Shown in pieces: positions 25,441 through 56,923 of a stretch of DNA of 64,000 nt; position 1 is the first letter of the stretch, and every line of letters starts with the position of its first letter. The position numbers and the translations under genes are program-made. Under the pieces are notes generated by a model, which was not told where the DNA came from, did not search any database, and saw only the letters and a program-made list of their open reading frames with translations. This DNA is from a virus: positions 1 through 64,000 of the IMG/VR virus record IMGVR_UViG_3300025853_008930. The stretch is one strand, 5' to 3'.

Positions 25441-26007
25441 TCATTCCTCTAAATTCTTTCTCCAATTCTTCGATTCTCTTACTTCTTCTACTTGTTCGGG
25501 TGTAAGATACATAGCAGGGTGAATATTTGCTCCCATCATACCGAATCTTTCAATTATTTCTTTTTGCTTTTCATTAACAAATTGCTTTACTTGTGGATTT
25601 TCTTCAAAGACATATATTTCAATATGAGAGGGGTCGCCATATTGACCTAAAGCATGAAAATAAATAACATCTGTAGGAAGATTAAATAAATAATCTTCCC
25701 CTAATCTTTCTTTATCTTGTTCATCAATACCATAATATGTAATTGCATCAACTTGATTATCTATTGCCCCTCCCCCAATATCTTCTCCTCCAAAATCACC
25801 ATCTATTAAATCTCTCAATATCATATCTTTAGCAATATTGACTGAATATTCTTTTGACATATAAATAATCATACGCTGAGAATCCGAAAATACCTTACTG
25901 TCTTTCCCGTATATTCTTTTAAGTTCATCTAATATTTCTTTGGTTAAATCACCAAGATATTTTTGAGCCGAAGCCCTATCCATTCTTTTTAATATATTGA
26001 ACCACAT
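25441..26007 (-). CDS. WxxILK-leader accessory protein
   Basis: Starts MWFNILK. Confidence 0.6.
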   Translation of the reverse strand: MWFNILKRMDRASAQKYLGDLTKEILDELKRIYGKDSKVFSDSQRMIIYMSKEYSVNIAKDMILRDLIDGDFGGEDIGGGAIDNQVDAITYYGIDEQDKERLGEDYLFNLPTDVIYFHALGQYGDPSHIEIYVFEENPQVKQFVNEKQKEIIERFGMMGANIHPAMYLTPEQVEEVRESKNWRKNLEE

Positions 26008-26012
26008 AATAA

Positions 26013-26675
26013 TCAATAATCCTTTATCATACTAGTTATTCCTTTATACACCATTTCGGGGTCGGACTTTGCTGATACTATGTATTTGAAACAAGGTATG
26101 CCCTTGTCATTCAACTGCCTCATCCCGTATGTAAATGGTTCAAATATTTCATGTTTATCTATGGGCTTATCGCTTTTATATTTCTCTCCCCACATATCAT
26201 ATTTGTTAGCCCATATTCCGACAGCCATAGGATAATCCACTTCTTTTTTCTTTTTACCCGAAGGCCACCTATCTGCTACAATGGTATCTACTAAAAACTT
26301 CCATGCTAATTGATGGTCTAAATTAGAAGGTGAATCTAAATGTCTATGGTCTATCATGAAAATAATATACTTTACTCTACGCTTCTGCATATCTTTAACC
26401 CATTCTTTCCAATAGATTGCTTCGCCTCCTAAGTCAGCACTTTTAATTGTATGAGAATTTCCATCAATCTTAACATTCTTTCTAGTGGCTCTATGTAAGC
26501 CAACCGTTCTTTCGCTTATTGTAGGAACTTCCCCCCTTGTTCTAAGTTGGTGGCTTAAGGTTGTTTTACCAACCATTGTAGAACCGTAAACTCCAAAGTT
26601 AATTGCATGAACTTTTTTGTAAAAACCTATTATGGCTTCACCAACAAGAATAGCAAAGCCTGTCATTATGGACAT
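26013..26675 (-). CDS. Ras/Arf-superfamily small GTPase with hydrophobic N-terminal helix
   Basis: G1 GSTMVGKT, G2 T, G3 DLGG, G4 NKYD, G5 SAK. Confidence 0.85.
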   Translation of the reverse strand: MSIMTGFAILVGEAIIGFYKKVHAINFGVYGSTMVGKTTLSHQLRTRGEVPTISERTVGLHRATRKNVKIDGNSHTIKSADLGGEAIYWKEWVKDMQKRRVKYIIFMIDHRHLDSPSNLDHQLAWKFLVDTIVADRWPSGKKKKEVDYPMAVGIWANKYDMWGEKYKSDKPIDKHEIFEPFTYGMRQLNDKGIPCFKYIVSAKSDPEMVYKGITSMIKDY

Positions 26676-26680
26676 TTTAT

Positions 26681-27202
26681 TCACCCAAAATATTTTTCTA
26701 ACATTTTTTTCATATGCTCTTTTGTTTCCATTACATCTTCATCTAGCGATAGTTCCATCCCTGCCGCACTTCTAAAATACCCTGTAATTTTAGGATAGTC
26801 ATATTCTGTTGCATCATCTATTAAATTCATTAACTCCGTCGCTTTCTTTTTTACTACTTTGTCGGGTAGATATTTATATTCTATATCTTCGTCGTGAGAA
26901 ATACCTCTAGGCATTCCCATTTCTTTTTTGTTTCTTATGTTTCTATTAACAGTGTATTCTCCATCGCCTTCTAGCCATTTTTCTTTATTTGTTTTCAAGG
27001 CTTGCTTTATCATGGGTTTTCCTTCATCTTTTATTGAATAAATTTTAGAACCAAAAAAAGCATAAATTAATGCTTCATCTAAAGAAGGAGTCCAATATCG
27101 AGTATCTTCTTTTCCCTGTGTTCCTTGAAACAACTTACTGTAAGCATTAACATAATCTTTTGATTGTATTTTGTAAGGTGCTTTTAAAATATTTTTCCAC
27201 AT
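26681..27202 (-). CDS. WxxILK-leader protein, possible ADP-ribosyltransferase fold
   Basis: MWKNILK; LFQGT...YWTPSLDEALIYA...GEY resembles the HGT/Y-T..A..YA/E ART motifs. Confidence 0.4.
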   Translation of the reverse strand: MWKNILKAPYKIQSKDYVNAYSKLFQGTQGKEDTRYWTPSLDEALIYAFFGSKIYSIKDEGKPMIKQALKTNKEKWLEGDGEYTVNRNIRNKKEMGMPRGISHDEDIEYKYLPDKVVKKKATELMNLIDDATEYDYPKITGYFRSAAGMELSLDEDVMETKEHMKKMLEKYFG

Positions 27203-27539
27203 ATTAATGCCCCCAAATATCCATTTTATTCACCTATGAATACATCTAAACCTACAAAATCCCCGTCTATTTGTTTTTCATAGTTCCAAAAAATCTCACC
27301 GTTAAACTCATCTTCATCCGCATATCTCAATTTCCAACCTAACTCATTTAATTTTTTATTTAGTTTATCCCAATCTACATCTAAAGGAAACAACAAATCA
27401 ATATCTTTTGGGTCTTCCTTTTTACCAACCGAACCCACTATTTTAGGTTTAAAATATTCTAAATCTTTTAACAATTGATTAGCAATAGAGACATAATTTT
27501 TAAGAATATTTTTCCACATATTAATGCCCCCAAATATCC
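27188..27539. repeat. 35-bp perfect direct repeat (27188-27222 and 27505-27539)
   Basis: AATATTTTTCCACATATTAATGCCCCCAAATATCC occurs twice. Confidence 0.9.
27226..27519 (-). CDS. WxxILK-leader minimal nucleotidyltransferase (Pol-beta superfamily)
   Basis: MWKNILK; IVGS...KDIDLL...LDVF catalytic pattern. Confidence 0.65.
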   Translation of the reverse strand: MWKNILKNYVSIANQLLKDLEYFKPKIVGSVGKKEDPKDIDLLFPLDVDWDKLNKKLNELGWKLRYADEDEFNGEIFWNYEKQIDGDFVGLDVFIGE

Positions 27540-27739
27540 TTAGCCCTCTCTATAATCCAACCCATTATATTGATGTCAAAGACTCCCATGATATTACCTA
27601 TCAAAAACGATGATAAGGCCGCACAAGAACCCCAAAAATACATCTTCATTTTTATAAAGAACATATCTGCTGAATGCGCCCGACTTTGATTATACACATA
27701 GTCGGACTCACTAAAGCCCATTATGTCGCCAAAGACCAA
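27521..27739 (-). CDS. Small membrane protein
   Basis: Hydrophobic stretch YFWGSCAALSSFLIGNIMGVF. Confidence 0.6.
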   Translation of the reverse strand: MVFGDIMGFSESDYVYNQSRAHSADMFFIKMKMYFWGSCAALSSFLIGNIMGVFDINIMGWIIERAKDIWGH

Positions 27740-29540: not shown

Positions 29541-30878
29541 TCACTGTATGTTTGTTATCTTTCCTTGACCCTTGAAGAAGGAACATCCGACTTCACCAAT
29601 TGTTCGATACAAAGCCCTGTTACCTAGAGTTCCAACACCGAATGGGTTTCCATTGGCGATACCATCTTCAAAGTATTGTGTTGGTTTCATAACCGATAGC
29701 CACAAATGGTCTGTATCAAGGAATAGTAAATCACTTAGTTTTGTTGAAGCACTACCTGTTTGGCACATATCCTTAACAGGGATTAGTGGAATATCGTAGT
29801 ATGTTGCTACTCTAAATCCAACTTCTTGACCTTTAACTCCTCTAACACCGTTTACAGTTGGCACGACTTCTTTTCTGTCCATGAATCTTTCTTGGCTTTG
29901 TAGTAAGTCAGCAAGTGCTTGAATAGTATCATAACCTGTTAGAATAACCTTTGGAGAACCACCGGCTAGTCTTAGGTTTCTAATCATATCATTTAGTCTT
30001 GTTAGAGTTAGTGAACGAACATCTCCTGCCGCATATCCACTACCAAAGTCTACTTCTGCATCAAGGAAAGATGCCGCAGTAAATCTCTCACTACCGTAAA
30101 TCTTTCCTAGAGCGTTAGAAGCGGAAGTTGTATCAGTAGCGATAACTCCACCGTCAATTGCTAGTAGTTCTGCTCTTGAGGTAATAACCTTGTTTAGAGA
30201 AGTATAGTTGTTTCCGATATTTGGCATAGCGGATGATTCACCATAATGCTCTAGTGGCATAACCAACATTTTGTTTTGAACTTCAGCGTGATGCTTACCC
30301 ATATCTTCACGCATTTGCGCTCTAATATCGCCAATACCATCATCAATTTGTGCCATTTCCATAGCAAGTTCACTGAAATCAAATTGATGTGCAACTACTT
30401 TAGGACTCATGTTGAGTTGTGCATAAGTTGGTGCAATTGGGCCAAGTCCATCTTGTGCTGTTGAAAGTCCTGCATTTTCAGGAACACCACCAATCATATC
30501 TGCTCTTGGGCTATCCGAACCTAGTTCTGCTAAGTTTTCTGTTCCGCTTGCATCAACAGTAAACAAGTTACCGCTTCCACCGGCAGGTCGTGACTTTAGA
30601 ACTCTCCAACCACTAGAAGAATATGGCCTCTTTGAAATCATTGAAAGAGCATTAACTTCTCTATTCAACATTGACCATACTTTCTGTCCGTAAACAATGT
30701 TGTAAAGTGCTGATACATCACTAACAGCACTACCGGAGAATGATGGAGAACCATCATGTCCTGTGTGTATTCCACCAATAGCACCGGCTTGCTTCAAAAG
30801 AGCGTTACCGGCAGGTAGATTGTTTATTCCATATGTGCTTGCTTCTAAATCTGCGATTGTGTTAATATAACCTGTCAT
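29541..30878 (-). CDS. Major capsid protein (HK97 fold)
   Basis: 445 aa directly after protease/scaffold; resembles archaeal tailed-virus MCPs; highly biased codon usage. Confidence 0.85.
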   Translation of the reverse strand: MTGYINTIADLEASTYGINNLPAGNALLKQAGAIGGIHTGHDGSPSFSGSAVSDVSALYNIVYGQKVWSMLNREVNALSMISKRPYSSSGWRVLKSRPAGGSGNLFTVDASGTENLAELGSDSPRADMIGGVPENAGLSTAQDGLGPIAPTYAQLNMSPKVVAHQFDFSELAMEMAQIDDGIGDIRAQMREDMGKHHAEVQNKMLVMPLEHYGESSAMPNIGNNYTSLNKVITSRAELLAIDGGVIATDTTSASNALGKIYGSERFTAASFLDAEVDFGSGYAAGDVRSLTLTRLNDMIRNLRLAGGSPKVILTGYDTIQALADLLQSQERFMDRKEVVPTVNGVRGVKGQEVGFRVATYYDIPLIPVKDMCQTGSASTKLSDLLFLDTDHLWLSVMKPTQYFEDGIANGNPFGVGTLGNRALYRTIGEVGCSFFKGQGKITNIQ

Positions 30879-30879
30879 C

Positions 30880-32112
30880 TTAAATTCCTCCTACCATTTT
30901 GTGAATGTCCGACCAATCCATTTCAGCCATCTCATCCATACTTGGGAGTTTAATTGCGGATTCTTCTTGAGCCTTTAGGATAGTTTCCTTTTCTGCTGTC
31001 AAAGATTTCCTTAGTTGTGTAAATTCATCTTTAAGAGAAGCAATCTCGCTTTGTGCATCATAGTTTTGCTTTGCGATAACATTCTCTCTTGTTGAAACTT
31101 CTCTTGCGAATCTTGCTTCAAAAGACTTCTTTAGGTTGTCATAAGCAAGTGATTCAAGTTGTTCTTGTCGGAAAGCCTCATATGCTTTCTCAATGTTTCC
31201 AACTGACAAATCAAGAGTATCAAATTCTCCATTGTTAAATGCCTTTACAACAGGCATGTCGGATGAAGTTGGCTTACCGTTGTTAATAACAATACGGTCA
31301 GCAGGTTCTCCAATTTGGTTTCCTGCACCATCAAGAGTTCTCAAGTAAGCCTTTGCTTCTTCATCTTGGTATTCTCCCATTCCCTTCTCATCTTCTGCAT
31401 CCATGTCTTCTTCATCTTCTTTGTCCATGCCGTAGTCTCCTCTCTCCATGTCATCATCAGCCATTTCTGTTTCTTTCATACCCTTTTCATCAAGAGCCTC
31501 TTCTTCTTTACGAAGCGTATTTACTTCTTCTAGCAAAGTGTCTAGTTCTGCTAGGGCTTTTTCCAGTTTATCACTCATATTATTGTCTCCTTTATCTTGT
31601 TTCAAAATATCGAATCTCGCTTCGGGGTTAATTCCTTTTTCGCATATAGTAATTTCATGCAATTCTAACTTGCTGATTTCATTATACTCACCCAAGTTTT
31701 CATTACTTTTCTTTACTTTTTGGAGGGCTTGACCTCCTATGCTAAAAGACCTTAATGACCCTTTGCGAATGTTTCTGCCAACTTCTTTGGCTTTTTCTAT
31801 ATCATCTCGTAGTTTAATTACTACAAAGAAACCAACATCATCTACTTCAGATTTCCAAAGTCTACCTGTGCTGTCTCTATAAGAATCCACAACTTCTCCA
31901 ACTTGAACATTGGAATGGTTTGTCATGACATTTCTAAATTTAGAATCTTTCATGAACTTAACAACTGCTTCTTTCAAAGCAGATAGTGTAATTAAATCAT
32001 TTTGCTTATCAACAATTTCAATGCTAGCATAGCCGCCAATCATTAAGTCGTCACTTCTAGCCTTAAGGATGGTAAACCCATCATTCCTAGTTGCTAGAAC
32101 TGCCGATGCCAT
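30880..32112 (-). CDS. Prohead protease (HK97 family) fused to scaffold
   Basis: IGGYAS..VDKQND, H (MTNHS), SFSIGG and LHEITICEKGINPEA motifs; acidic coiled-coil C-terminal half. Confidence 0.85.
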   Translation of the reverse strand: MASAVLATRNDGFTILKARSDDLMIGGYASIEIVDKQNDLITLSALKEAVVKFMKDSKFRNVMTNHSNVQVGEVVDSYRDSTGRLWKSEVDDVGFFVVIKLRDDIEKAKEVGRNIRKGSLRSFSIGGQALQKVKKSNENLGEYNEISKLELHEITICEKGINPEARFDILKQDKGDNNMSDKLEKALAELDTLLEEVNTLRKEEEALDEKGMKETEMADDDMERGDYGMDKEDEEDMDAEDEKGMGEYQDEEAKAYLRTLDGAGNQIGEPADRIVINNGKPTSSDMPVVKAFNNGEFDTLDLSVGNIEKAYEAFRQEQLESLAYDNLKKSFEARFAREVSTRENVIAKQNYDAQSEIASLKDEFTQLRKSLTAEKETILKAQEESAIKLPSMDEMAEMDWSDIHKMVGGI

Positions 32113-32171
32113 TTCGCTCAAAGGGAAAAAATTTCCTTTTAATATATAATACACACGGTTATTTTAAACAA

Positions 32172-34721
32172 TTAATCCTCTTTTGGAGGTAATTCAAGAC
32201 TACTATATTTATCTTCATAAATATTCCATAATCCTTTATCAGCATCAGTATCAGCAGGTTTTTGTTCATAGCCTGTCCATGCTAGCCACATTTTCTTTCC
32301 TTTAACTTCAAGCATTCTAACATGAAGTTTAGTTTCAAACTTATTACCCTCTAAGAAATATTCGTGATAGCCTTCCTTTTGAACACCTAACTTAACATCA
32401 CCACTATCAATCAATTTACGCTTGGATATGTTCTTAGCAACAATAGCAGGGAACTTCCCTGCCTTGCCAAATAGTTCAAAGACATCATCTTGTGAATCTA
32501 ATCTAACCATCCAATTAATGCTTTCATCACCTAACTTCATTACTATGTTTAGGCTATCGTCGTCTCTAAGATATATTTTAAACTCGCCACTTCTGTATTT
32601 TTCAGGTGTCTCATATTCTTTCTTGATAGTGTCCATTAATATCTTATCATGCTCGGCAAACAACTTTTTTGTTTTAGCATCAAAGGATATTCCATCTCTA
32701 TTTTCAAACCAATCCTTAACTCTACTTTCTTTGCTTTCTAATATATCTTGATATTCTTTTTTATTATTCTTTACCAAAAAGTTGTGAACTTCTTTAGGAG
32801 TCTTTGCTCCTTTCTCTTTCAAGTAATTAAATATAGCAACAGTAAGTTTAGATTGTTTCGTTTTCATTATCTCTTCTGCTTGTTCTTTCCACAAGTCTAA
32901 ATCCATTAAGGCATTTTTAGCCATTAGATTATCTTGCTCAAAGCCATAGATAGTAAAACCATCCATATCGCTCTTAATTATAATGCTAGCCTCACCGTGA
33001 ATATGGTCAGTAATTACAATGCCTTTCTCTACTTCTTCTACATTATATTTGAGAGACTTGTCAGTATCATTGATTAGCATTTGTAATGTAACTAATTTAT
33101 CCGGTGTTTTACTTTCTGCAATCTCAGTTATCTTTGCGGAATAAACTACAGGCTTACCCTTGACTTCTTTTACCTTATCAATAGAGACTCTAACTACTTC
33201 TCCAACATCTGCTGAAACTTTAGTGTTAGTAGCACTACCAACTTCAAGATAGTTTACTCCTTCTATCTTTTCATCTCCTTCTTCAACCGGCCCTGCCCCT
33301 AATTTGTAAGAAAAGTTAGAACCGTTTTTCTTTTTATCAAGAACAATTAAATCTAGTTCTACAAATGGTTTCCAACGAATCCACTTAGGATTCTTTTTCG
33401 TTCCCAAGAAATATGTAGATGTAGAATCTTTAATCATAGCCCCTTCTGCTGTTGGTATTTCCATAATTTTCTTAGCATATTCTTCAACATCTTTTAGGCT
33501 GTCTGCAACCCTAGTATCTTTTTTAGATGGGAATGTTAAGTCCTCACTAGAATGTATAGAATAGTTGTTAAACATTATTTGCATTCTATTTTGTAGCGTA
33601 TCTTCCATGAGGTTTTCTTCATTGTGTCTCATAATGTCAAACACATGAATTCTAACCTTGCCTTCTCTTTTTCCCTCTAAGTATTCTGCGGCTTCTTTTC
33701 TTTTAAGAGAATCTTCTCCGTCAAATAAAACTAAAGAAGCATCTAAGATACAATCACCAAAATGTTTTTTCTTTAGTTCCTCAACTGCTTCTTTACACTT
33801 TGATGTAATGTCTTTTCCTGTATAATCATAGACTTTTATATTCTTATCTATTTTATGTAATTGAATTCTAAAACCATCGTATTTTTCTTGAACATAAAAC
33901 TCACCACTAAATCCCTTTAGTTCGTTCATATCTTCTATTGTAAATATTCTATACATTGGTTTGTTAGGGATTATGAAATCACTTTGGGCTTTTTCTTCAT
34001 CGGACTTCTTTTCTTTTAGAATAACTTTATCGTCTTGTTCCTTATCTTTAGTGGCTTTTTCTTCATCCATATCTGTATCTATGTCTTCTAATTCAGCCCA
34101 CTCTTCTTTAGTGTTTTTAGATAAGAATATTAATTCTAACATATTCATAGCGGCTTTTACTTTAGCCTCTACTTTTTTAGAGTCTTTACCATCACCATAA
34201 TGTTCTATAATGTAAAGTGCAACATCATCTACTTCTAGGTCTAATCCCATAAGTCCTTCTGTGATGTCATCCGGTTTCATATCTTTAATTGAATATGCTT
34301 CTTTTGGTAGTGCTTTATCATCTTCTCTAATAGCATAATGAACAAACTTAATCATAAGTTCGGGTGATTCTAATAATGCTTCTAATACATTGCCTTTGAA
34401 TTTTTTAGCGAAGGGGTCACTAACTTCTTCCGAAGAATACCTAAGTGCCTTTATTGCTTCATACAATTTTTCAGCATTATTTGTGCTAACATCGGAGACA
34501 TCATCCGCCTCTAATAAGTCATCATCAATATAATCCTTGAGTTCATTTGAAAGAGCATCCGTCATTTCATATGCGTCTTTAATTCTATTTACTGCGTTTC
34601 TCCATTTAGAACCGTATTCCTTTGGGTCGGTTCTTGCTGAAAGATAAGCGACTCTCGTTCTTTCAAAGAGTCTTAGAATATCTGTGGATATTGACTTATC
34701 CTTCTCAATAAGGAGAGGCAT
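32172..34721 (-). CDS. ATP-dependent DNA ligase with N- and C-terminal extensions
   Basis: EKYDG (motif I), FDIM, EGAMIK, WIRWKP, OB fold. Confidence 0.85.
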   Translation of the reverse strand: MPLLIEKDKSISTDILRLFERTRVAYLSARTDPKEYGSKWRNAVNRIKDAYEMTDALSNELKDYIDDDLLEADDVSDVSTNNAEKLYEAIKALRYSSEEVSDPFAKKFKGNVLEALLESPELMIKFVHYAIREDDKALPKEAYSIKDMKPDDITEGLMGLDLEVDDVALYIIEHYGDGKDSKKVEAKVKAAMNMLELIFLSKNTKEEWAELEDIDTDMDEEKATKDKEQDDKVILKEKKSDEEKAQSDFIIPNKPMYRIFTIEDMNELKGFSGEFYVQEKYDGFRIQLHKIDKNIKVYDYTGKDITSKCKEAVEELKKKHFGDCILDASLVLFDGEDSLKRKEAAEYLEGKREGKVRIHVFDIMRHNEENLMEDTLQNRMQIMFNNYSIHSSEDLTFPSKKDTRVADSLKDVEEYAKKIMEIPTAEGAMIKDSTSTYFLGTKKNPKWIRWKPFVELDLIVLDKKKNGSNFSYKLGAGPVEEGDEKIEGVNYLEVGSATNTKVSADVGEVVRVSIDKVKEVKGKPVVYSAKITEIAESKTPDKLVTLQMLINDTDKSLKYNVEEVEKGIVITDHIHGEASIIIKSDMDGFTIYGFEQDNLMAKNALMDLDLWKEQAEEIMKTKQSKLTVAIFNYLKEKGAKTPKEVHNFLVKNNKKEYQDILESKESRVKDWFENRDGISFDAKTKKLFAEHDKILMDTIKKEYETPEKYRSGEFKIYLRDDDSLNIVMKLGDESINWMVRLDSQDDVFELFGKAGKFPAIVAKNISKRKLIDSGDVKLGVQKEGYHEYFLEGNKFETKLHVRMLEVKGKKMWLAWTGYEQKPADTDADKGLWNIYEDKYSSLELPPKED

Positions 34722-35499: not shown

Positions 35500-35688
35500 T
35501 CACTTCATTTTATCCGCTAGGACAAACGGTGGACTCCCGTTATACACAAGAACCTTCTCACGGTTCTTATTAAAAATATATCCTATTGCGTATATTGCCT
35601 TTCCAGTATCCAAGTCTTTTCTTTCTCTCACAACTATTCTCTTAGTGTATAGAGGCAAGTCTTCTTTAATTATATTTTTCCAACTCAT
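35500..35688 (-). CDS. WxxILK-leader protein
   Basis: MSWKNIIKE. Confidence 0.6.
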   Translation of the reverse strand: MSWKNIIKEDLPLYTKRIVVRERKDLDTGKAIYAIGYIFNKNREKVLVYNGSPPFVLADKMK

Positions 35689-36047
35689 CTCTTTTCCTCC
35701 TTTGGTGGATATACTAAATCTCTTAGTTGTCTGTAAAGCAACTCATAGTCCTTACGGAGTTCGGTAGCCGAAGCGACTATATCTACATTCCGTTCATCCA
35801 TAGACTTCATTTTCTTTGTAAGTTTTTTATCGGACTTAACTAACTCTACATCTTTTAATGCTCTAATTAACTCACCTAACTTAGTAAAATCTTGACCAAA
35901 AAATTCTGTTGGTTGTGCGGCTTGTAGTGTTTTCTTTAGACGCTTAGTTTGTTTCTTATCTAATGTGTCTAATATATTCTTCTTTATTTTTTCTTCTTTC
36001 TTTATGGTAAATTCTTTACCTTCTTCATAATAATCCCATGTCATCAC
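35685..36047 (-). CDS. Hypothetical helical protein
   Basis: Coupled ORF. Confidence 0.6.
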   Translation of the reverse strand: MMTWDYYEEGKEFTIKKEEKIKKNILDTLDKKQTKRLKKTLQAAQPTEFFGQDFTKLGELIRALKDVELVKSDKKLTKKMKSMDERNVDIVASATELRKDYELLYRQLRDLVYPPKEEKR

Positions 36048-39430: not shown

Positions 39431-39658
39431 TCAAAATGGAATATTCTCTTTCTTACCTCTCCTCTTTTGTGGGGGTAAGATAACATCGGGAACATCATTA
39501 GATGCTCTTATTGCTTTATGAGTTGTATCCGGTGGTAGTCCACCAACAGAAAAATCACGATTCTTCGTGGTCTTTCTAGTATCATTTGCATTCTGTGTTC
39601 TAACTTTCGCTAATTCTTTCTTTAGTCTAATCTCTTTCTGTCTATTATCTTCTGTCAT
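39431..39658 (-). CDS. Hypothetical protein
   Basis: Coupled to the portal stop. Confidence 0.55.
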   Translation of the reverse strand: MTEDNRQKEIRLKKELAKVRTQNANDTRKTTKNRDFSVGGLPPDTTHKAIRASNDVPDVILPPQKRRGKKENIPF

Positions 39659-41304
39659 TAACCTGTCCTCCTTTCACTCCTTCTATCTACATTTTGATTA
39701 CCTGCGTCTTCCGGTAATCCGCTTAATCTTTTATCCGGCCCAACACTCATAGAAGGTTTATTTCTAGTAGCCGGTGGATTTTCTTGTGGCTTACTACCGC
39801 CACCTTCTGCAAACATTCTTGTTTGTTCATCTAAATCTCTTTGGTCTAAATTAGAACCTGCTAGTGGGTCTTTTTCTATGGGTCTTCCATCATCATCCAT
39901 TTGTTGTTCATCTTCTTTTGGTTCGGGTTTCTTGTAAGTAAAGTTACCATCCTCATCCATATCAACTTCAAAGCCTAAGTTCTTTATTGATGCCGCAATA
40001 TTGACTTCAATCTCTTTCTTTCTTAGTCCTGCAATCTCATCTTCTTCTTCGCTAGGAGGCAACTTCAACTTCCAATCTGTAATGCCAAATTGCTTTACAA
40101 GATAAGGAAATACATATTCATTGTAAACATTCTGTGCCATTTGAACTGCTCTATTAGTTACAAGTATTTGCATACCTTCATTGTTTAAGCCGCCACTTGT
40201 AGTATTATCAGCCATGAAGACTTTACTGACACCATAGAACGCTGATATTCTATCTCTCAAATCATCCTTAACAGAAATATAATCCATTTCTTTTAGGCTA
40301 TCCATGAACTTAATCCACTCAACAGCACCTTTACCGCCTTCTGCTTCTATACCCATAACAGGAATAAAGTGCGGGTCTGCCTCCATCTTTTCTTTTACTC
40401 CTCTCCAAAAGGCTCTCATTGAATCCATGTTTCTAGTTTGAACCGCTAACAAACCTCTTGGCATTCTGCTCTTAGTATAGGCTGAATTGACATAGTTCTC
40501 CATAGCAATTAAAGTCATGATATGATTGTAAAGTGTAATTACAGGGGAAAAACCGTAAAGTCTTGAAGGACTATACTTACTAAAATGTAATACTTCTCCT
40601 TCGATGAAATACTGTTCATCACCTTTTGCTCGATTGACATAATGAATAGGCATAAGAGGAGAGCCACAAGTTTCACAACTATCGTGTGGTTCTGTTGAAA
40701 TAATATCTCTATGATGAACACAAGTAAATCCTTTGTTACCCTTTACGCCATCTTCATCGGCATAAATAAACATAGTAACAGGGTCGCCACGATACACTTC
40801 CTTAACACGGTGCATTCTAATTTTACCATTACCATCCAAGAAATATTCTTTGACCATAACTATGTATGCGTCATCCATAATATTCAAATCGTCTTCCAAT
40901 TCCTTCAACACATCAATAAATAATTGCTCGGATGAGTTTACATAACCCTCTAAGAACTTTTCAGCATATTCTAATTGCTTAACATCGGGTATTTTTAAAT
41001 CAGTAGAGCCACATCTTGAACACTCTTGAACAGGTCTTGTGTGGGTTTTTCCGCAATTGTTACACTTTGCTTCAAATGCTTTTTCCCAAACATAGCCTCT
41101 TCTGTAGACTTCCTGCTTTAGTTGAGTTATACAAGTTCTAACAATTACTGATTGTTGAACCATAGAATAGATGATGGGGGCTGTCATCATGTAATTGTTC
41201 TGCCTTTCTTGAATACCCATGTTGTAGATATTCCTGTCAGCAGGTTTCGGAGTAGTGCGCCTGAAAAGATTAGTGAAAGAGAACCGCCTTCTTTTTTCTG
41301 CCAC
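39658..41304 (-). CDS. Portal protein with zinc-ribbon insertions
   Basis: YGFSP, RISAFYGVS and VFPYLVKQF portal-like motifs; size and position. Confidence 0.8.
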   Translation of the reverse strand: MAEKRRRFSFTNLFRRTTPKPADRNIYNMGIQERQNNYMMTAPIIYSMVQQSVIVRTCITQLKQEVYRRGYVWEKAFEAKCNNCGKTHTRPVQECSRCGSTDLKIPDVKQLEYAEKFLEGYVNSSEQLFIDVLKELEDDLNIMDDAYIVMVKEYFLDGNGKIRMHRVKEVYRGDPVTMFIYADEDGVKGNKGFTCVHHRDIISTEPHDSCETCGSPLMPIHYVNRAKGDEQYFIEGEVLHFSKYSPSRLYGFSPVITLYNHIMTLIAMENYVNSAYTKSRMPRGLLAVQTRNMDSMRAFWRGVKEKMEADPHFIPVMGIEAEGGKGAVEWIKFMDSLKEMDYISVKDDLRDRISAFYGVSKVFMADNTTSGGLNNEGMQILVTNRAVQMAQNVYNEYVFPYLVKQFGITDWKLKLPPSEEEDEIAGLRKKEIEVNIAASIKNLGFEVDMDEDGNFTYKKPEPKEDEQQMDDDGRPIEKDPLAGSNLDQRDLDEQTRMFAEGGGSKPQENPPATRNKPSMSVGPDKRLSGLPEDAGNQNVDRRSERRTG

Positions 41305-41575: not shown

Positions 41576-41856
41576 AACTTCTTACATGCTAGACATTTAG
41601 GTGTTGTGATTCTACCTTTGCATTGGTCACAATTATGTCTTGCTTTAAAATTAGCCCTACGCTTTTTGTTGGTATGAGTTCCACCGCCCCTATTCTTTCC
41701 TTTGCCTTTGTAATTGCCATATCCTTTAGCACCTGCATGAATCTTTTTTCCTTCATGAGTAAGCATCATAATTTTTTTACCTTCTCTATCGGAAGGATAT
41801 ACACGACCTACTCGCATGTCTTTCTTATCTTTTTTACACACATCGAACCAAGTCAT
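41569..41856 (-). CDS. Basic protein with leader variant MTWFDVCKK
   Basis: KIHAGAKGY...RRANFKARH...W. Confidence 0.6.
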   Translation of the reverse strand: MTWFDVCKKDKKDMRVGRVYPSDREGKKIMMLTHEGKKIHAGAKGYGNYKGKGKNRGGGTHTNKKRRANFKARHNCDQCKGRITTPKCLACKKLW

Positions 41857-42257
41857 TGCTTACCCCTCATTTGATTTTCTTTAGAACGCTTATCGTCTTT
41901 TATCGGGCCGCCTTTAGCCCATGTTCTACAAGACCTAGCCGAATGACATTTAAAATGGTGCATCCAACAATAACCTAATTTACCATCATCATCTAATTCT
42001 AACGGCATACATTTTTCCATTCTAGGACTAATATCAAACGCTACACAATTACCGCAGTTAGAATCCATAGCGGCTTCTACTGATGTATTCCAAAAGTCTG
42101 CAATATCTTCCCAATAATCTTCGGGCTTGTCTATATTAAGTGGGCCATATTGTATATGTTCTGCTTTTATGGCGGCATTTCTATTCTTAGTGTTTAACTT
42201 CAAATCCTGTGTTGCTCTAGGACAAGTAAGTTCCTTTAGAATAATATGCCAACTCAT
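41853..42257 (-). CDS. WxxILK-leader Cys/His-rich protein
   Basis: MSWHIILKE; CGNC...YCWMHHFKCHSARSC. Confidence 0.65.
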   Translation of the reverse strand: MSWHIILKELTCPRATQDLKLNTKNRNAAIKAEHIQYGPLNIDKPEDYWEDIADFWNTSVEAAMDSNCGNCVAFDISPRMEKCMPLELDDDGKLGYCWMHHFKCHSARSCRTWAKGGPIKDDKRSKENQMRGKQ

Positions 42258-42261
42258 AATA

Positions 42262-42678
42262 TCATCTCGGACTATGTGTGTAAATATCTCCATCTTTGTG
42301 CATGAATATTTTACCTTCTTTTTCTAATTTCTTCAAGGCCGCTTTAATCTCGGTTTCCTTTCCAAATTGTTTTAGGTTTTTCATTCCTAATGCTCCGCCC
42401 TCTTTCTTAATTTCTCTTAAGATTTGACGCTCTAATTTTGCTGTCTTCATTCTAGGACTAATGTTCATAAAGTCTGTCATTTCTTCGGGGTCTTTACCAA
42501 AAATAGATTTCTTAACCTTTCTTCGTTTAAGTTCATCAAAATCTGCACCTGTTATTTTTCCTTTCGGTTTAGCCACATCTAATTTTTTTTGCCCACCATA
42601 AAGCATCTTTTCATCTTCTTTATGAGTTCCACAATGGGCTTTCTCATCTTCTGTTTTTAGTATGTCTTTCCAACTCAT
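42262..42678 (-). CDS. WxxILK-leader protein with winged-helix-like C-terminus
   Basis: MSWKDILKT; ALKKLEKEGKIF. Confidence 0.6.
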   Translation of the reverse strand: MSWKDILKTEDEKAHCGTHKEDEKMLYGGQKKLDVAKPKGKITGADFDELKRRKVKKSIFGKDPEEMTDFMNISPRMKTAKLERQILREIKKEGGALGMKNLKQFGKETEIKAALKKLEKEGKIFMHKDGDIYTHSPR

Positions 42679-43025
42679 CTTGTAAATCCCCTGCCTCTAC
42701 TTTTTGTTTTTTCTTTACTCGCTTCCTTTCTTTGCTTGGCGTAAGTGTGTGCCGCTTTTAGCCTTTTCTTTACTTTACGGTCTTTAGCATTTTTAACTGC
42801 GGCTCGTAATCTTTGCTCCACTAAATTGATTATTTGTGATTGTCTTTTATGAGACTTAGATTTGAATGCACTACTACTAAATGTTTCTTGAACATCTTTA
42901 ACGGTTCTAAATTTTACAGGAACAGTATCTTTTGGGTTTTCATCTGTGTATAATCTTCTTGCTGAACCTTTTGGTTTTTTACCCGTTCCTTTTTTCGGGT
43001 CAGCCTTCAAGATATTCTGCCACAT
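42675..43025 (-). CDS. WxxILK-leader basic protein
   Basis: MWQNILKA. Confidence 0.6.
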   Translation of the reverse strand: MWQNILKADPKKGTGKKPKGSARRLYTDENPKDTVPVKFRTVKDVQETFSSSAFKSKSHKRQSQIINLVEQRLRAAVKNAKDRKVKKRLKAAHTYAKQRKEASKEKTKSRGRGFTR

Positions 43026-43336
43026 TATGCTCCCTTCCTCCTTTTGTAAGTTTTACAAGCGGCACAAGTTGGCCTACATCTTTGTTTAGTTCCTTTAGAA
43101 GCATCCGGTCTTCCGCAAGGTTTTGTTCCTTTTTTATCATCTTCACATGATTGACAAGAAACCCAACCTTTTGCTTTACCACTACCGCCTCTTCTTTGAA
43201 ACCATCCATGAAGACCGGACTCTTTTTCTCTCTTGAAATTGTCTCCGCCCTTTCTTCTTTGTTTCTTCTTATATCTTTTAGCACCGCTTCTTCTTCGAGC
43301 CTTGCTCTTTTTTTGAAGAATGTCCTGCCATGTCAT
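43025..43336 (-). CDS. WxxILK-leader basic Cys-containing protein
   Basis: MTWQDILQKK. Confidence 0.6.
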   Translation of the reverse strand: MTWQDILQKKSKARRRSGAKRYKKKQRRKGGDNFKREKESGLHGWFQRRGGSGKAKGWVSCQSCEDDKKGTKPCGRPDASKGTKQRCRPTCAACKTYKRRKGA

Positions 43337-43341
43337 ATTAA

Positions 43342-43572
43342 TCACTTCTTAGATTTGTTGCCCCAATTATCCGCACCAACTTTACGACATCTAACTAAAG
43401 CACCGCTAGCATAAGCGGAAGGCCACTTATCATATCTGCTACGAACTTTGTAATAACAAGCATCTTGTTTTTTATCGGACTTACGATTTCTGCGGCCTTT
43501 TTTCTTAGCCCGCTTAGAACCTTTTTTTCTTCGAGACTTACTCTTTTTTTGAAGAATATCTTGCCAACTCAT
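43342..43572 (-). CDS. WxxILK-leader basic protein
   Basis: MSWQDILQKK; DACYYKV..RY..WPSAYASG. Confidence 0.6.
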   Translation of the reverse strand: MSWQDILQKKSKSRRKKGSKRAKKKGRRNRKSDKKQDACYYKVRSRYDKWPSAYASGALVRCRKVGADNWGNKSKK

Positions 43573-43697
43573 TTCTTCATCACCTTTGGTTTATCTGCTT
43601 GTTCCCAACATCTCCTACAAAAGCCAAATGGGTGAACATCTCTTGTCATGTAACATCTACCACAATACTTGAATTGTAGTTTTTGTTTACTAATCAC
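43569..43697 (-). CDS. 42-aa zinc-finger peptide
   Basis: Manual translation with CGRC...FCRRC; ATGA overlap with the next gene. Confidence 0.45.
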   Translation of the reverse strand: MISKQKLQFKYCGRCYMTRDVHPFGFCRRCWEQADKPKVMKK

Positions 43698-45076: not shown

Positions 45077-46507
45077 CTAAAAGTTAATTCCCATGACTCC
45101 TTGAGAGCGTTTATACTTATTGACCTTTGGCGGGTCAAATAACCCCATGTCATCTAAGAGTATGAATGTTTCACTCATCGTATGAGTAGCGGCATTAGCC
45201 AACGCTAAACTCATAACCATGTCGTCATGCGCCCCTATTCCCTCAAACTTTCCTTTGTCTGTAATAGCAAACATAGATAATTCTTCTATTAAAGTAGAAG
45301 TAACTCGACGACTTTCTTCATTAGCGTAAGGTAATATTATCTTACCATTTTCAAAGTTCATTTGTAGACTTAGAATAATCTCTTCTTTCTTTTTCCTAGT
45401 GGTGTTAAAGTCGTGAACATTTAAATCTGTAACATTTCTAATCTCTTGTGTAAATGATTTAGCAAATGTATTTGTTTCAAACAATATTGCTTCGGGCTGA
45501 AATACTTTACCGATTAATTTCACCTTCTGTATATTCTCTCTAAACTCTACATTCTTAGAACGGTCAATATACACAATAGTTTTGTTATCATTTTCATCAA
45601 CTTCTAATACAGTAATTACATTATAATCTCCATCAGTAGAAATAGCGGGGTCAATGCCAACATAATATTTGTAGCCCTCTCTACGCATTGGTTTCAAAAC
45701 ATGGTCTTTGCTCTTTGCCGCTTCCAAATATTCGGGATTGAATAGAGAAGTTCCTGTAGATATTGGAACACACATATATTCTCTTGTAAACATTAGAGAG
45801 CCGACTTCAGCCTTTCTCGCCATAAGAGCATCATAATCCCATCTATTCGGCCATAGCGGTTCGTTAAGAGCATTAAGACAAGGATATGTTCTAAGAGTAT
45901 ATGCAGGGTTTTCAGCGAGTTGTTGGTAAATATCTGTATAACTAAATGGAGTTCCAATAACTCTTAGAGAAGCAGTATGGTGAAGTGTTGGTATCATGTC
46001 ACCATAAAACCAATCTGTAACCTTTTGAATTCCTGTCATACTAAACTCTTTCAAAGGGTCGTCAATGATAATCTCTTGAGGGTGAAGTCCACGAATCTGT
46101 GAACCGACAGAACGCTCTAAGATTTGATTACCATTAGTAAGTGTGATATTTCCAATTGCCCAACCCTTTGCCGGTTTGTATTTCTTTAACATTGGATGAT
46201 TGAATAGTTTATCTATATCTCTCATGTGAACCAAAGTCTGTTTTTGGTTAGAAGAAATGTATAGCATTTGATATGGTGGTTCTCTAAACACTAAATTCCA
46301 TACAACCCAAGCATGCATAAATACTGATTTACCGTGACCTCTTGAACAAATGATAACAGTTCTTTGTGTATCGTTCATCAAATCGTGCCACTCTTCTTGG
46401 TGCTTGGCGAACTCCCAACCTAGAACTTGCTGAAAGAAATAAGGAAATGAGTTTTTAGATAATTCCATATCCATTTGATGCTCAAAGTTAAATGCGTCTA
46501 TATCCAT
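45077..46507 (-). CDS. terL: Terminase large subunit
   Basis: SRGHGKS, IIIDD, IGTP, GIDPA and HDDMV motifs. Confidence 0.9.
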   Translation of the reverse strand: MDIDAFNFEHQMDMELSKNSFPYFFQQVLGWEFAKHQEEWHDLMNDTQRTVIICSRGHGKSVFMHAWVVWNLVFREPPYQMLYISSNQKQTLVHMRDIDKLFNHPMLKKYKPAKGWAIGNITLTNGNQILERSVGSQIRGLHPQEIIIDDPLKEFSMTGIQKVTDWFYGDMIPTLHHTASLRVIGTPFSYTDIYQQLAENPAYTLRTYPCLNALNEPLWPNRWDYDALMARKAEVGSLMFTREYMCVPISTGTSLFNPEYLEAAKSKDHVLKPMRREGYKYYVGIDPAISTDGDYNVITVLEVDENDNKTIVYIDRSKNVEFRENIQKVKLIGKVFQPEAILFETNTFAKSFTQEIRNVTDLNVHDFNTTRKKKEEIILSLQMNFENGKIILPYANEESRRVTSTLIEELSMFAITDKGKFEGIGAHDDMVMSLALANAATHTMSETFILLDDMGLFDPPKVNKYKRSQGVMGINF

Positions 46508-49761: not shown

Positions 49762-52079
49762 TTCTCCTCCTTGAATAGTTTTCCGTCTATCATTTGTCTT
49801 AGCAAATTCTCATCGTAGTATAATGTCTTATAGTTCTCCGGCCTATTTGCTATGTCTTCTAATTTCTTCTTTAAAGATTTCTTAAACAACTCTCTTATTT
49901 TGTTTAAATCTTCATTGACTTTATTGGCGAGTTCTTCTATGGCTTCTTTAAGAGATTCATTTTCTAGTGAAAGATTCTCTCTAGCAATATCGCCAACTAT
50001 CTCTTTCAAAGGTTTATCTGCTTCAACAACTATTTCGTTTTCGTCGGCATCTAAGTCTTTCACTTGCACTTTCTTTTTGTATTCAGCCGCAGGGAATAAA
50101 AGTTCTGCTGTGTATAGGGCGACAGCAAAGGCTTGAGACTTATCCATTTTTTTAGACAATAAATTTTCTATATTCGTTTTTGATATAACTTTGCCTAATG
50201 TTTGGTTTTTAGGCAAGGAAACTAATAATTCATAAAACGCTTTGGCGATTTCGCTAGAAAAATCATCGGCTGTTATTGGTTCTAAGTCTTCTAGTTCATC
50301 AATAAATTCACCTAGTTTTTCATCATCTTCATCCCAAGATTCCTCTTCTGTCATTGTCTCTCTTACAAGAGGTTCTAGTGTTTTAATGAAGTTTCCTAAC
50401 TCTTTATTTGTTGTAATATATTTATTTCCTGCTCTTATCAAATATTTACTCTTATCATCTGTATTTTGAGTATCTAGGTTTTGAGTTCTAAACTTCCCAT
50501 AAAGGTCTGCAAAGGTATCATCCTCCAAATTTTCTTTGCTGAATAGCCATTTTATCACTTCTGCATCAAACTCTTCAAAGTTTTCATCTCCGACCAATTC
50601 ATTGTATTCTTTTTCTGTTTCTGCTAATTGTTTATCGTCTAATTGAGACATGCTGATGCCTAGTTTTCTAGCGGCTGTCGCTTTAGCAGAATCTAAAGAA
50701 TATTTTGCGGTTCTTTTTGATAGTCCTTTACTTGCTTCAAAAAAAGCATCCGAACCGCTAGTAGTTAGCAATTGTTCAAAAAATGGGTGAATTTCTAACT
50801 TTCTTGCTCCTCTAGCACCTTTTTGAAACATAAGATTATCAATTTTTTCATTATTTATCTTGAAAAGTAAAGGAGTTTTGTCCAATTGTCGCTTTGCTCT
50901 CTTTTCTCCACGAACTTTTATGCCAAATTGCATTTTGCTTGCTCCTAAAACATTCAAATATGTCTCTACTTGTTTTTCTCCGACATTTTCAGCAATCAAC
51001 TTAGTCAATTCGGCATCTTCCATAGCATATCCGCCAATTTTTGTTTTATTTTGCAGTTTTTCATCTGAACTCACTAATAATTCATATAATTCGGGATAAT
51101 CAACATAAAAAAGTATTCTTGCTTTACGATTTGCTTTCATTTTAGCGGCTCTTTGTGAATATTCAGCCGGTTTTATGTCTTTTTCTGCTATATCCTTGAA
51201 TGATTTTTCGCCACCACGAATAATTCTTTTCTTTGTCCTTGCTTCAGCCGTAAATCCTTCTCTAAATGTCAAACGAACACCATCTTTATCAACAAATTTA
51301 GATAAAAATTCTTCTTGTTCAATTTTTTTCCTTACGGGGATGTCTACAACCTTACCATAAAGCGTAAGATTTTCTTTTATCTTGTTTTTTGACTTAAATT
51401 TGTTGCTATTCGCTGTAAATTTTTTGAAATCCCCTACCTTTTTAGCATAAACTATGCCTTCAATGTTCTCAATTCCAATCACAATCAAGGCTTTATTGAA
51501 AATAACACGGTCTTTAAAAAAATCTTGAACACTTACATTACTATCCTTGATACTGTTTTTCAAAATAGTAGTTAATTTTTTTAGATTTTGCTGTCCTATT
51601 ACCTTTCTTAGTCTATCTTTGCCTCCACCGGACAAATTTTTCCTTTGTTCTTCTAGTGAATTTCTCAAGTCTTGTAGTTGGTTTGAATTTAGCGTTTCTA
51701 AATTAGCATATTTGTTTATTTTTTCTATAAAACTTAAAGATTTTATTTCTCTTTCTTCAGGTTTATCTTTACTATAATCTCTTTTAGTGGCCATGTGTTT
51801 TTCCATAACCTTTGTGAATCTTTCGTGAACTTCCTCTAGCCTGTCTTTGTATTTTCTGTATGCCTCATTGAAATTCCTACGAAAAATATTTTTAAATTCT
51901 GTAACATTTGAGTAAAAATATTCTACTGAACCGGAAGAGGTGGTTTTTCCAAACTTAGACAGAACTTCTCTTTTAGCATCCTTTTTGTTTTCTGTTTTCT
52001 TATTAGAAAGCATGTCTTGATAAGTAGAATCACCCATCAAAAAATCCCAAAAGAAAGAAGCAGGAAAAGGAAATACCAC
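49758..52079 (-). CDS. Large charged helical protein (773 aa)
   Basis: Long ORF. Confidence 0.65.
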   Translation of the reverse strand: MVFPFPASFFWDFLMGDSTYQDMLSNKKTENKKDAKREVLSKFGKTTSSGSVEYFYSNVTEFKNIFRRNFNEAYRKYKDRLEEVHERFTKVMEKHMATKRDYSKDKPEEREIKSLSFIEKINKYANLETLNSNQLQDLRNSLEEQRKNLSGGGKDRLRKVIGQQNLKKLTTILKNSIKDSNVSVQDFFKDRVIFNKALIVIGIENIEGIVYAKKVGDFKKFTANSNKFKSKNKIKENLTLYGKVVDIPVRKKIEQEEFLSKFVDKDGVRLTFREGFTAEARTKKRIIRGGEKSFKDIAEKDIKPAEYSQRAAKMKANRKARILFYVDYPELYELLVSSDEKLQNKTKIGGYAMEDAELTKLIAENVGEKQVETYLNVLGASKMQFGIKVRGEKRAKRQLDKTPLLFKINNEKIDNLMFQKGARGARKLEIHPFFEQLLTTSGSDAFFEASKGLSKRTAKYSLDSAKATAARKLGISMSQLDDKQLAETEKEYNELVGDENFEEFDAEVIKWLFSKENLEDDTFADLYGKFRTQNLDTQNTDDKSKYLIRAGNKYITTNKELGNFIKTLEPLVRETMTEEESWDEDDEKLGEFIDELEDLEPITADDFSSEIAKAFYELLVSLPKNQTLGKVISKTNIENLLSKKMDKSQAFAVALYTAELLFPAAEYKKKVQVKDLDADENEIVVEADKPLKEIVGDIARENLSLENESLKEAIEELANKVNEDLNKIRELFKKSLKKKLEDIANRPENYKTLYYDENLLRQMIDGKLFKEEK

Positions 52080-52087
52080 TAAACCAC

Positions 52088-52231
52088 CTACTTCATAGCA
52101 TATCTTTCTATTTCATCTATCGCTGTCTTAACATACTTAGGGGCTGACTTCATACTATCTCTTAGTGTTGCTAAGGCTTGAGCAATCATAGCCTCATCTA
52201 TATCTTCTTTAATTATATCTTGCCAATTCAT
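52088..52231 (-). CDS. 47-aa WxxILK-leader peptide
   Basis: Manual translation MNWQDIIKEDIDEAM...; GGTGA RBS. Confidence 0.6.
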   Translation of the reverse strand: MNWQDIIKEDIDEAMIAQALATLRDSMKSAPKYVKTAIDEIERYAMK

Positions 52232-52240
52232 TGTAATCAC

Positions 52241-52681
52241 CTAATATGAGCCTTGCCAATCAATGTCTCCTCTATACTCGAATTGGTTTTTATCTTTTTG
52301 ATTTTTCATATCAATGTAAACTGTAACACTCGAAACATTAAAACTAGGGCTTTCGTATGAGTCGGGCATATGATTATCTAATTTATCTGCATCAAACTCT
52401 ACATCATATTCAGTTTCGTCTTGCTCAAATGTATCTGTCTCTACAACATAATTAAAGTTTAGACGGACTTTACTCGCATAAGACCCAACACCCTTTACTC
52501 CCCAACTTCTAAGTTCAACATCAAATCTTCCGTCTACATATCCAGTTGCATTGTCAATGTATGAGTCATTTTTTTCTTCGGGAGCATTTTCTAAAAAAAC
52601 ACTTAGCATTCTGCCATCTATTTCCCAAGTAATGTCTGCCATTTTTTTAATATCTTCTTTTACTATATCTTTCCAACTCAT
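52241..52681 (-). CDS. WxxILK-leader acidic protein
   Basis: MSWKDIVKE. Confidence 0.6.
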   Translation of the reverse strand: MSWKDIVKEDIKKMADITWEIDGRMLSVFLENAPEEKNDSYIDNATGYVDGRFDVELRSWGVKGVGSYASKVRLNFNYVVETDTFEQDETEYDVEFDADKLDNHMPDSYESPSFNVSSVTVYIDMKNQKDKNQFEYRGDIDWQGSY

Positions 52682-53334: not shown

Positions 53335-53348
53335 TTTAAATCACCTCA

Positions 53349-53708: not shown

Positions 53709-53709
53709 T

Positions 53710-53991: not shown

Positions 53992-53995
53992 TTTA

Positions 53996-55472: not shown

Positions 55473-55484
55473 GTCAAACCCTCT

Positions 55485-55784: not shown

Positions 55785-55785
55785 A

Positions 55786-56013: not shown

Positions 56014-56015
56014 AA

Positions 56016-56922: not shown

Positions 56923-56923
56923 A

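Follow-up and report, generated by a model that had tools for sequence, protein, structure and literature searches.

The operon junction described here lies in the first 64 kb (hereafter the window) of a single viral record of 80,705 bp, IMG/VR IMGVR_UViG_3300025853_008930. Between a gene for a 72-aa membrane protein and a gene for a small GTPase-like protein, two unrelated genes, cassettes A and B, stand in tandem, each beginning with codons for a short leader peptide of the same type. The junction is likely to be a hot spot for accessory genes, at which the tandem was formed by one further unequal recombination event. At least five alternative cargo families are found in the slot, and three independent stacks of cassettes are known, in which scars record the previous neighbour of a cassette.

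Layout of the junction

All features of the junction lie on the minus strand, which carries most genes of the record. The upstream edge of the slot is the core gene of the 72-aa single-pass membrane protein (27521..27739), an open reading frame (ORF) with homologues in all 78 evaluable related loci. The downstream edge is the core small-GTPase-like gene (26013..26675), which begins with ATG TCC ATA ATG and gives weak matches to P-loop GTPase families of Pfam. Cassette A (27226..27519) encodes a leader-tagged protein of 97 aa, predicted to be a minimal nucleotidyltransferase of the Pol beta superfamily, and cassette B (26681..27202) encodes a leader-tagged protein of 173 aa. The cassette ATG is located 1 nt past the stop codon of the 72-aa gene and the GTPase ATG no more than 6 nt from the cassette stop; as there is no spacer of sufficient size, no room is left for a promoter or a terminator. 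The last codons of the 72-aa gene (TGG GGG CAT and the stop) contain a G-run ribosome-binding site (RBS) for the following gene.

The first-pass annotation of this DNA had pointed out three elements at the junction, all of which are present as described. One is a perfect 35-bp repeat (J1), copy 1 of which (27505..27539) covers the 3' end of the 72-aa gene together with the start region native to the first cassette, and copy 2 of which (27188..27222) precedes B. It reads G GAT ATT TGG GGG CAT TAA T ATG TGG AAA AAT ATT, that is, the last five codons (DIWGH) and the stop of the 72-aa gene followed by MWKNI. The second is a perfect 13-bp repeat (J2, GGTGAATAAAATG) at 27222..27234 and 26673..26685, and the third is a mini-ORF, MDIWGH-stop (27204..27224; seven codons including the stop), in which the last 20 nt of the 72-aa gene are repeated directly behind the ATG of J2. 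The J1 copies are 317 bp apart and can be extended to 41 nt if two mismatches are allowed; the other repeats within the 3-kb region are imperfect and at most 22 nt long. A repeat of this kind should be far beyond chance in an 80.7-kb genome with 35% GC. The J1 and J2 pairs interleave, both using base 27222, and the region can be written as (J1-A-J2)(J1-B-J2).

The two repeats differ in nature. Copy 1 of J2 comprises a GGTGA RBS, the stop of A and an ATG, and copy 2 comprises the RBS and ATG of the GTPase gene and overlaps the stop of B. If up to one mismatch is tolerated, the window contains seven occurrences of the 13-mer, always on the minus strand, against 0.18 expected, and GGTGA followed after 3-8 nt by a start codon is found upstream of 28 ORFs of at least 40 aa genome-wide. 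The reading frame of J2 differs between the cassettes (GGT GAA TAA in A, GGG TGA in B), and it is native to cassettes that occur alone, to A in L082, L088/L090, L129, L130 and L133 and to B in L009. Because of this frequency, the change of frame and the presence at lone cassettes, J2 is the generic Shine-Dalgarno sequence, spacer and ATG of this virus, and its earlier interpretation as an insertion scar is abandoned. In L082, L129, L130 and L133, the 13-mer runs into ATGTC... of the GTPase gene; the ATG of J2 copy 1, which opens the mini-ORF here, is the GTPase start in these A-only relatives. Copy 2 of J1, on the other hand, is a true scar, since 20 nt of the 72-aa gene are found in it outside their normal context. 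This piece stands before B, and therefore B must once have stood directly behind the 72-aa gene. The mini-ORF segment hands B its native RBS, and the start region of B is as it is when B is alone.

Alternative occupants of one slot

When IMG/VR was scanned with the GTPase protein, 234 related places came up; 80 of them were fetched, and 78 could be evaluated at the slot. In 66 of the 78 the slot is empty, the stop of the 72-aa gene being followed within 2-5 nt by the GTPase ATG in the pattern ...TGGGGGCAT TAA(T) ATGTC.... The remaining 12 are filled with one insert each: A in L030, B in L009, L063 and L033, a weakly GNAT-like protein of 96-105 aa (C) in seven loci, and a protein of 165 aa (D) in L075. 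In further scans, lone A turned up in L082, L090, L129, L130 and L133, lone B in L086 and divergent B in L092, L123 and L127; L097, L099 and L128 have a fifth family (E), and more relatives of D were found. All occupants of this slot begin with MW[KFW]xx[LI]K precisely where the GTPase ATG would stand, and the motif TGGRGNCATTRRTDTGTGG precedes about 30 of them. The proposal of the first-pass annotation that A and B are alternative occupants of one slot is thus borne out by alignment of the junction in related genomes, because the slot holds either cassette alone between the 72-aa gene and the GTPase gene, or another cassette, or nothing; the arrangement is not fixed. Both parent types that are predicted for the tandem exist. 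A followed by GGTGAATAAAATGTC is found in L082 and in L129, the latter with a backbone like that of the window and an A that is 97.3% identical, and B with the same 3' end as in the window is found in L009.

Many empty-slot loci (e.g. L050, L054, L076) show TCATTRAT ATG TCATTAAT G, in which a direct repeat of 8 nt surrounds the GTPase ATG; codons 1-3 of the GTPase gene in these loci resemble a second copy of the upstream stop and spacer. This repeat may be an old footprint or a landing site.

The cassettes move independently of the backbone, and transfer across diverged backbones is clear. Cassette A of the window is 96.6% identical to that of L030, while the flanking 135-aa, 72-aa and GTPase genes are 69%, 79% and 83% identical, respectively; for B of the window and of L063 the corresponding values are 90% and 72-82%. 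The C cassettes of L008 and L028 differ at 2 nt, although their 72-aa proteins are 99% and 72% identical, respectively, to that of the window. Between A of the window and A of L030 there are nine synonymous codon differences and one non-synonymous difference, and A is accordingly considered to be a working gene. Two A-type cassettes (A') from the two halves of one 184.7-kb contig (L088 and L090) are 99% identical between flanks of 68-83% identity. In this contig (IMG/VR 3300021958_000021, 184,733 bp), the virus region is present twice at a distance of about 92 kb; the two copies are only 68-83% identical in core genes, one with a B-type cassette (B') followed by A' and the other with A' alone. 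It looks like two related genomes that have been joined, either as an assembly chimera or as a heterodimer.

In a backbone tree constructed from the 135-aa gene and the distal GTPase gene, with the junction left out, at least 11 changes of slot state are required, and at least nine if filled and empty are the only states distinguished. One starred clade unites L030 (A), L031 (empty) and L033 (B), the backbones of L030 and L031 being near-identical. This distribution bears on the reverse course of events, in which the stack is ancestral and the single and empty forms arose from it by deletion between the copies of J1, leaving B, or between those of J2, leaving A. Such deletions are expected to occur, and they would give exactly the observed products: recombination of J1 with J1 yields the B-only arrangement, and that of J2 with J2 yields A followed by GGTGAATAAAATGTC as in L082 and L129. 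However, empty slots prevail in every clade including the most diverged ones, and the backbones closest to that of the window, L006 and L001, are both empty. In addition, the 20-nt fragment before B requires an earlier state in which B adjoined the 72-aa gene, and the other stacks differ from that of the window in order and in scars, so that they do not go back to a single ancestral array. An ancestral stack is therefore highly improbable.

The joint between A and B

The joint between the two cassettes, AAAATG|GATATTT, lies outside both the leader and the RBS elements. TCC comes after the ATG in the A-only parent type (L082, L129), and CTAAG comes before GATATTT in the B-only type (L009). The parental contexts have about 1 nt in common, for which reason the crossover at this point would have been illegitimate.

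An assembly chimera, in which the alleles of an A strain and a B strain were strung together across shared repeats, has to be considered here, because both single-cassette alleles exist in nature and the exact junction is found in no other contig of the two collections searched. The joint itself argues against it. Neither allele contains AAAATG followed by GATATTTGG, the sequence is novel with only about 1 nt shared, and a graph or overlap assembler would have lacked a common k-mer for the step from the end of A back to a point 20 nt before the 72-aa gene ends. The product is also a functional one, with both ORFs intact and the RBS of B kept. Furthermore, analogous stacks with other scars occur in four other assemblies from different samples, which makes a one-off assembly error unlikely. 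Collectively, a chimera is judged to be very improbable.

These other stacks are instructive in their own right. The B'+A' stack, the order of which is opposite to that in the window, is found in contigs from three samples. B' (211 aa) is 34% identical to B and A' is 81% identical to A; the mini-ORF is absent and a copy of GGTGGGGGCATTGAT stands between the cassettes. In L131 (ENA contig FUFK010720099.1, 943-3301), E, A'' and B'' all stand in the slot as a stack of three. In front of A'' is a diverged copy, 17 nt long, of the 72-aa gene end, and the first four GTPase codons are copied before B'', so that B'' starts with MSLMWFDIIKK. Since the independent stacks carry different scars, stacking is a recurrent event. 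Two other ideas were dropped at this stage: that the mini-ORF is a designed feature, as the scars of the other stacks do not form an ORF, and that the tandem is a duplication followed by divergence, as A and B are unrelated in sequence and in fold.

Several points weigh against the formation of the tandem by an unequal event as proposed here. The exact joint, spelled AAAATGGATATTTGG at 27215-27229, rests on one assembly, and the pattern ATGGATATTTGGRGNCATTRRTWTGTGG gave no match in IMG/VR and JGI metagenome contigs, a search from which the record itself was perhaps excluded. The start region of B differs from that of L009 at four positions over the 35 bp of J1, with one more difference just 3' of J1, and those 35 bp are identical to the copy before A. 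This identity could result from later gene conversion or from a different history. The direction, gain or loss, follows from parsimony and the scar and was not observed, and the position of the homologous crossover cannot be fixed without donor genomes.

Probable homology arms and proposed origin of the tandem

Across diverged backbones, identity jumps to about 93% at approximately 80 nt before the cassette, and over the first ~100 nt of the GTPase gene it is still near 90%. This high-identity tract was at first a candidate proof that the flanks had travelled with the cassette; it was dropped, because pairs of empty slots at equal backbone distance show the same island, from roughly -80 to +40 nt. 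The conserved ends of both core genes would be sufficient for ordinary homologous exchange, and routine exchange probably uses this island.

There is some support for an additional role of the leader and start region as a joint in swapping. Cassette C in L036 and L034 carries A-type leader DNA, so that identical leader DNA is found on unrelated bodies, and the first 15 nt of the leader of B in the window are also of the A type. In the A family, the leader type tracks the location, being MW in the slot and MSW in the array of L132 described below, where the leader and about 17 nt of sequence upstream are common to consecutive tagged genes. In L030, an 8-bp repeat TAATATGT flanks A, and deletion of one copy together with the cassette gives the sequence of the near-identical but empty L031. 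The first-pass annotation had regarded the leader and RBS as the homology arms by which the tandem was built, and this holds in part for swapping, as C with an A-type leader and TAATATGT indicate. A strict version, in which the stack itself arose from homologous crossovers within the leader and the 13-bp RBS alone, is unlikely. Such crossovers would swap cassettes and cannot stack them with a fragment of the 72-aa gene in between; the joint of A and B is outside both elements, which offer no crossover arm where about 1 nt is common; the 13-mer is generic; and the identity tracts reach into the flanking genes.

The following course of events is proposed. A cassette would be an ORF without a promoter, starting where the GTPase ATG would stand and using the RBS buried in the 72-aa gene, and it would mostly end with its own GGTGA-type site to restart translation of the GTPase gene, as A and B both appear to do. 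Co-infecting relatives would acquire, lose and exchange cassettes, for the most part through homologous recombination, with ~80 nt at the end of the 72-aa gene and ~40 nt at the beginning of the GTPase gene as arms and with some crossovers in the leader and start region. For the tandem, a B-bearing genome presumably met an A-bearing genome or fragment in one cell. One crossover in the shared upstream sequence, probably homologous, would then have been combined with a second join that was made without homology (~1 nt of microhomology) 20 nt before the start of B. This unequal event would join the ATG after A to the point 20 nt upstream of the B start in the B-bearing genome. Products losing the RBS of B would not express B, and selection for those that keep it might explain why just that segment is retained. 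The mini-ORF would be a by-product, which may also couple translation.

A dedicated insertion system of an integron-like or homing-like type, with a hairpin of the 72-aa gene end and leader as its candidate site, might at first sight account for insertions that are precise to the nucleotide. The J1 region does fold around the RBS and ATG into a stem of 8-11 bp in the window and in L009 (z -3.8 and -3.1, respectively), and the 35-bp repeat spans about that hairpin. Yet the hairpin is absent from the same junction in L063, L086, L033, L075, L088 and L090, and for this lack of conservation it was rejected as a recombination site; the scars of the stacks vary in length and origin as well. Neither a tyrosine nor a serine recombinase is found in the 80.7-kb record, which is 86% complete (PF00589 and PF00239 gave no match, whereas positive controls did), and no homing endonuclease was detected next to the slot with Pfam and PHROG. 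A system of this kind is extremely improbable.

As for the hairpin itself, an 11-bp stem at 27490-27545 (minus strand), which encloses the RBS and ATG, is formed between the codons for DIW in the 72-aa gene and those for KNIL in the leader; a matching stem is strong in L009 and weaker in several other lineages. It may serve lineage-specific translational control.

Leader peptide and cargo proteins

The leader consists of seven residues, MWxxILK, with an invariant W, and is common to at least 24 unrelated protein families of this virus group. In the more relaxed form M(x)Wxx[ILV][LIV]K it is found in 18 ORFs of the record and, with relatives included, in 25 unrelated clusters, the bodies of which show no mutual match at E 1e-5. 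Over these 25 families the leader codons are synonymously variable, with ATT, ATA and ATC for Ile, five Leu codons, and AAA and AAG for Lys. As the codons for Ile, Leu and Lys vary freely, the constraint is on the peptide and not only on the DNA.

Cassette A can be assigned with confidence, from its motifs and its structural model, to a Pol-beta-type nucleotidyltransferase fold with GS...DxD...D motifs. G29-S30, D39-x-D41 and D92 are invariant in 18 homologues. The AlphaFold model has a pLDDT of 86, and its top Foldseek matches are Pol lambda/mu, MenT1 and URT1 (probability 0.96-1.00, E from 2e-3, TM up to 0.66); the Pfam sequence match is below threshold. The B family, represented by an alignment (A2) of nine sequences, has an invariant motif FQGxQG, and its model (pLDDT 78) shows a disordered leader. 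For B, the model gives a weak hint, which is to be treated as a lead only, of an Arr-like ADP-ribosyltransferase fold: Arr is the top match in VIA-align at Z 5.0, with diphtheria-toxin-like, Tpt1, RES and exotoxin A chains at Z 2.7-3.9, all of these scores being below the trustworthy level, and Arr-ms is the nearest named Atlas cluster at a score of 0.87, likewise a lead only. Foldseek E-values for B exceed 0.4. The catalytic triad of Arr-like enzymes is H-Y-[EDQ]; Arr presumably has an HGT-type motif, in place of which B shows FQGxQG. Neither A nor B has a sequence match in the PDB, nor does the profile of B, and no Pfam or PHROG match above threshold was obtained for A, B, the 72-aa protein or small proteins nearby. 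The cargo proteins resemble enzymes for the modification of nucleic acids or proteins, which would fit host takeover or counter-defence.

By analogy with phage T4, the RBS and the MWxxILK leader might form a dual plug-in module, serving at the DNA level as a joint by which unrelated enzyme genes (nucleotidyltransferase, ART-like, GNAT-like and others) are taken up, transferred from slot to slot and stacked, and at the protein level as an address tag, e.g. for capsid loading and delivery to the next host with cleavage after Lys7, and the leader would then be an archaeal counterpart of the T4 capsid targeting sequence (CTS). This is a tentative and rather doubtful proposal; as a candidate address tag, the leader is short enough to be tested. 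A literature search with the leader peptide strings returned frog-skin peptides and other unrelated papers only. In the N-terminal part of the major capsid protein (MCP; 30770-30878, minus strand), a stretch 25-30 residues in, ...PAGNALLKQAG..., resembles the NILK of the leader by eye, and the two may share a prohead-protease site.

Comparison with known systems

T4 packages the ADP-ribosyltransferase Alt through a CTS leader; such a leader brings its protein into the prohead and is cut off by the prohead protease. The internal proteins of T-even phages form a very varied collection in which only the CTS is conserved (PMC3012670). The present cassettes are similar in that unrelated small proteins have only a short N-terminal leader in common, the genes vary among close relatives, and the cargo apparently consists of host-modifying or counter-defence enzymes. 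On the other hand, they belong to an archaeal virus, the MWxxILK leader is unrelated to the CTS, about 20 tagged genes are spread across the genome including a presumed early region, and the cassettes are situated inside a translationally coupled operon junction.

For the PeSL (promoter-early stem-loop) cassettes in hyperplastic regions of T4-type phages, Arbiol et al. (2010, PMC2839356) describe border sequences, which are short, conserved and regulatory, as joints at which ORFans are inserted, deleted or replaced among close relatives; a gene with direct repeats on either side could, in their account, be released as a mini-circle. Conserved border sequences are a common feature: J1 flanks A and J2 flanks B, TGGRGNCATTRRTDTGTGG stands before about 30 slot occupants, and GCAGGAGWGAYTACAATG is repeated in L132. 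PeSL cassettes, however, are units with promoter and terminator in intergenic DNA, while here there is no intergenic DNA and the element consists of an RBS and the first codons. Morons of lambdoid phages, attributed to Juhala, Hendrix and colleagues (2000), are reportedly extra genes with their own promoter and terminator between adjacent genes. As with morons, a gene is inserted between neighbours that are adjacent in relatives and has a history unlike that of its flanks. The difference is that the cassettes have no promoter or terminator of their own, judging from the lack of intergenic spacers and with archaeal promoters not modelled, and would rely on read-through and translational coupling.

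Conserved boundary sequences of lambdoid phages are said to act as crossover points, a notion connected with the modular theory of Susskind and Botstein and reportedly with work on HK620 by Clark and colleagues in 2001. Short conserved stretches at gene ends would serve module exchange in both cases, but the island here flanks a slot of presence or absence, not alleles of an essential function, and is partly a coding leader. Homology-facilitated illegitimate recombination, reportedly described in bacterial transformation by de Vries and Wackernagel in 2002, resembles the event proposed for the tandem in that one homologous anchor and one microhomology join give an insertion with a duplicated flank, although its application here goes beyond the bacterial transformation in which it was described. 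Integron cassettes are likewise promoterless ORFs in tandem with upstream expression signals and variable arrays; in the present case the record has no integrase, there is no conserved attC-like structure, and the scars are heterogeneous.

The slot works most like the hyperplastic and internal-protein loci of T4-type phages and also resembles boundary exchange of lambdoid phages. The cassettes are not PeSL units, morons or integron cassettes, since they lack a promoter and terminator, an attC site and an integrase. The mechanism is ordinary at the DNA level, and the cassette design is unusually compact: it has no promoter, borrows an upstream RBS, donates a downstream RBS and carries a leader of seven residues.

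The second slot and other arrays

Leader-tagged genes are also found outside the junction. A second polymorphic slot (at 25441-26016) lies between the stop of the GTPase gene and a 210-aa gene and is occupied in the window by a gene for a 188-aa protein starting with MWFNILK (25441..26007, minus strand). It is empty in 51 of 73 loci and accommodates at least eight cassette families, seven of which have the leader; the family that lacks it is found in L010, L012 and L014 (MSLDEQVYY...). The insertion point is between TATTGA and GGAATGAAAGATG, and therefore the cassette ORF ends in the resident RBS. Stacking occurs here as well: in L041 (5620-6560), tagged cassettes of 101 aa and 182 aa stand in a row, with TGATTATTATGTGG before both.

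L132 (JGI contig Ga0181373_1000532, 230-4540) contains six leader-tagged genes, one of them with a degenerate leader. Three consecutive genes are preceded by a shared GCAGGAGWGAYTACAATG. A member of the A family in this array starts with MSWELILK, and a protein of 592 aa starts with MSWTSLLK; as the latter bears the leader, the leader is not confined to small proteins.

The virus and its setting

The record has a completeness of 86% (CheckV), 35% GC and no end repeats. Its structural genes, all on the minus strand, comprise those for an HK97-type MCP (29541-30878), an S78 prohead protease fused to a scaffold-like tail (30880-32154), an 849-aa protein with an ATP-dependent ligase domain (32172-34721) located between the protease and portal genes, the portal (39658-41304) and the large terminase (45077-46507). 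The MCP matches only those of haloarchaeal and other archaeal tailed viruses at 21-25% identity, with haloviruses as the best matches. Magrovirus-like viruses are abundant in the surface ocean; to our knowledge none has been cultured, and their variation and the roles of their accessory genes are almost unstudied. A halovirus-like structural module with an embedded ligase is a hallmark of magroviruses (Philosof et al. 2017, PMC5434244). This hallmark is present here, with an ATP-dependent ligase inside a halovirus-like module of MCP, portal, protease and terminase. Judged from the structural module, the virus would be a marine archaeal tailed virus of magrovirus-like type, magroviruses being viruses of Marine Group II archaea with a near-complete archaeal replisome (DNAP, PCNA, RFC, AEP, MCM, RadA). 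The junction thereby offers a view of gene gain at nucleotide resolution in an uncultured virus of this kind, and the conserved flanks of the slot provide a practical PCR target for a survey of accessory-gene diversity in seawater. Most of the other leader-tagged ORFs of the window cluster in runs of small genes, at 52000-57900, 41800-43600 and 35500-35700 (minus strand).

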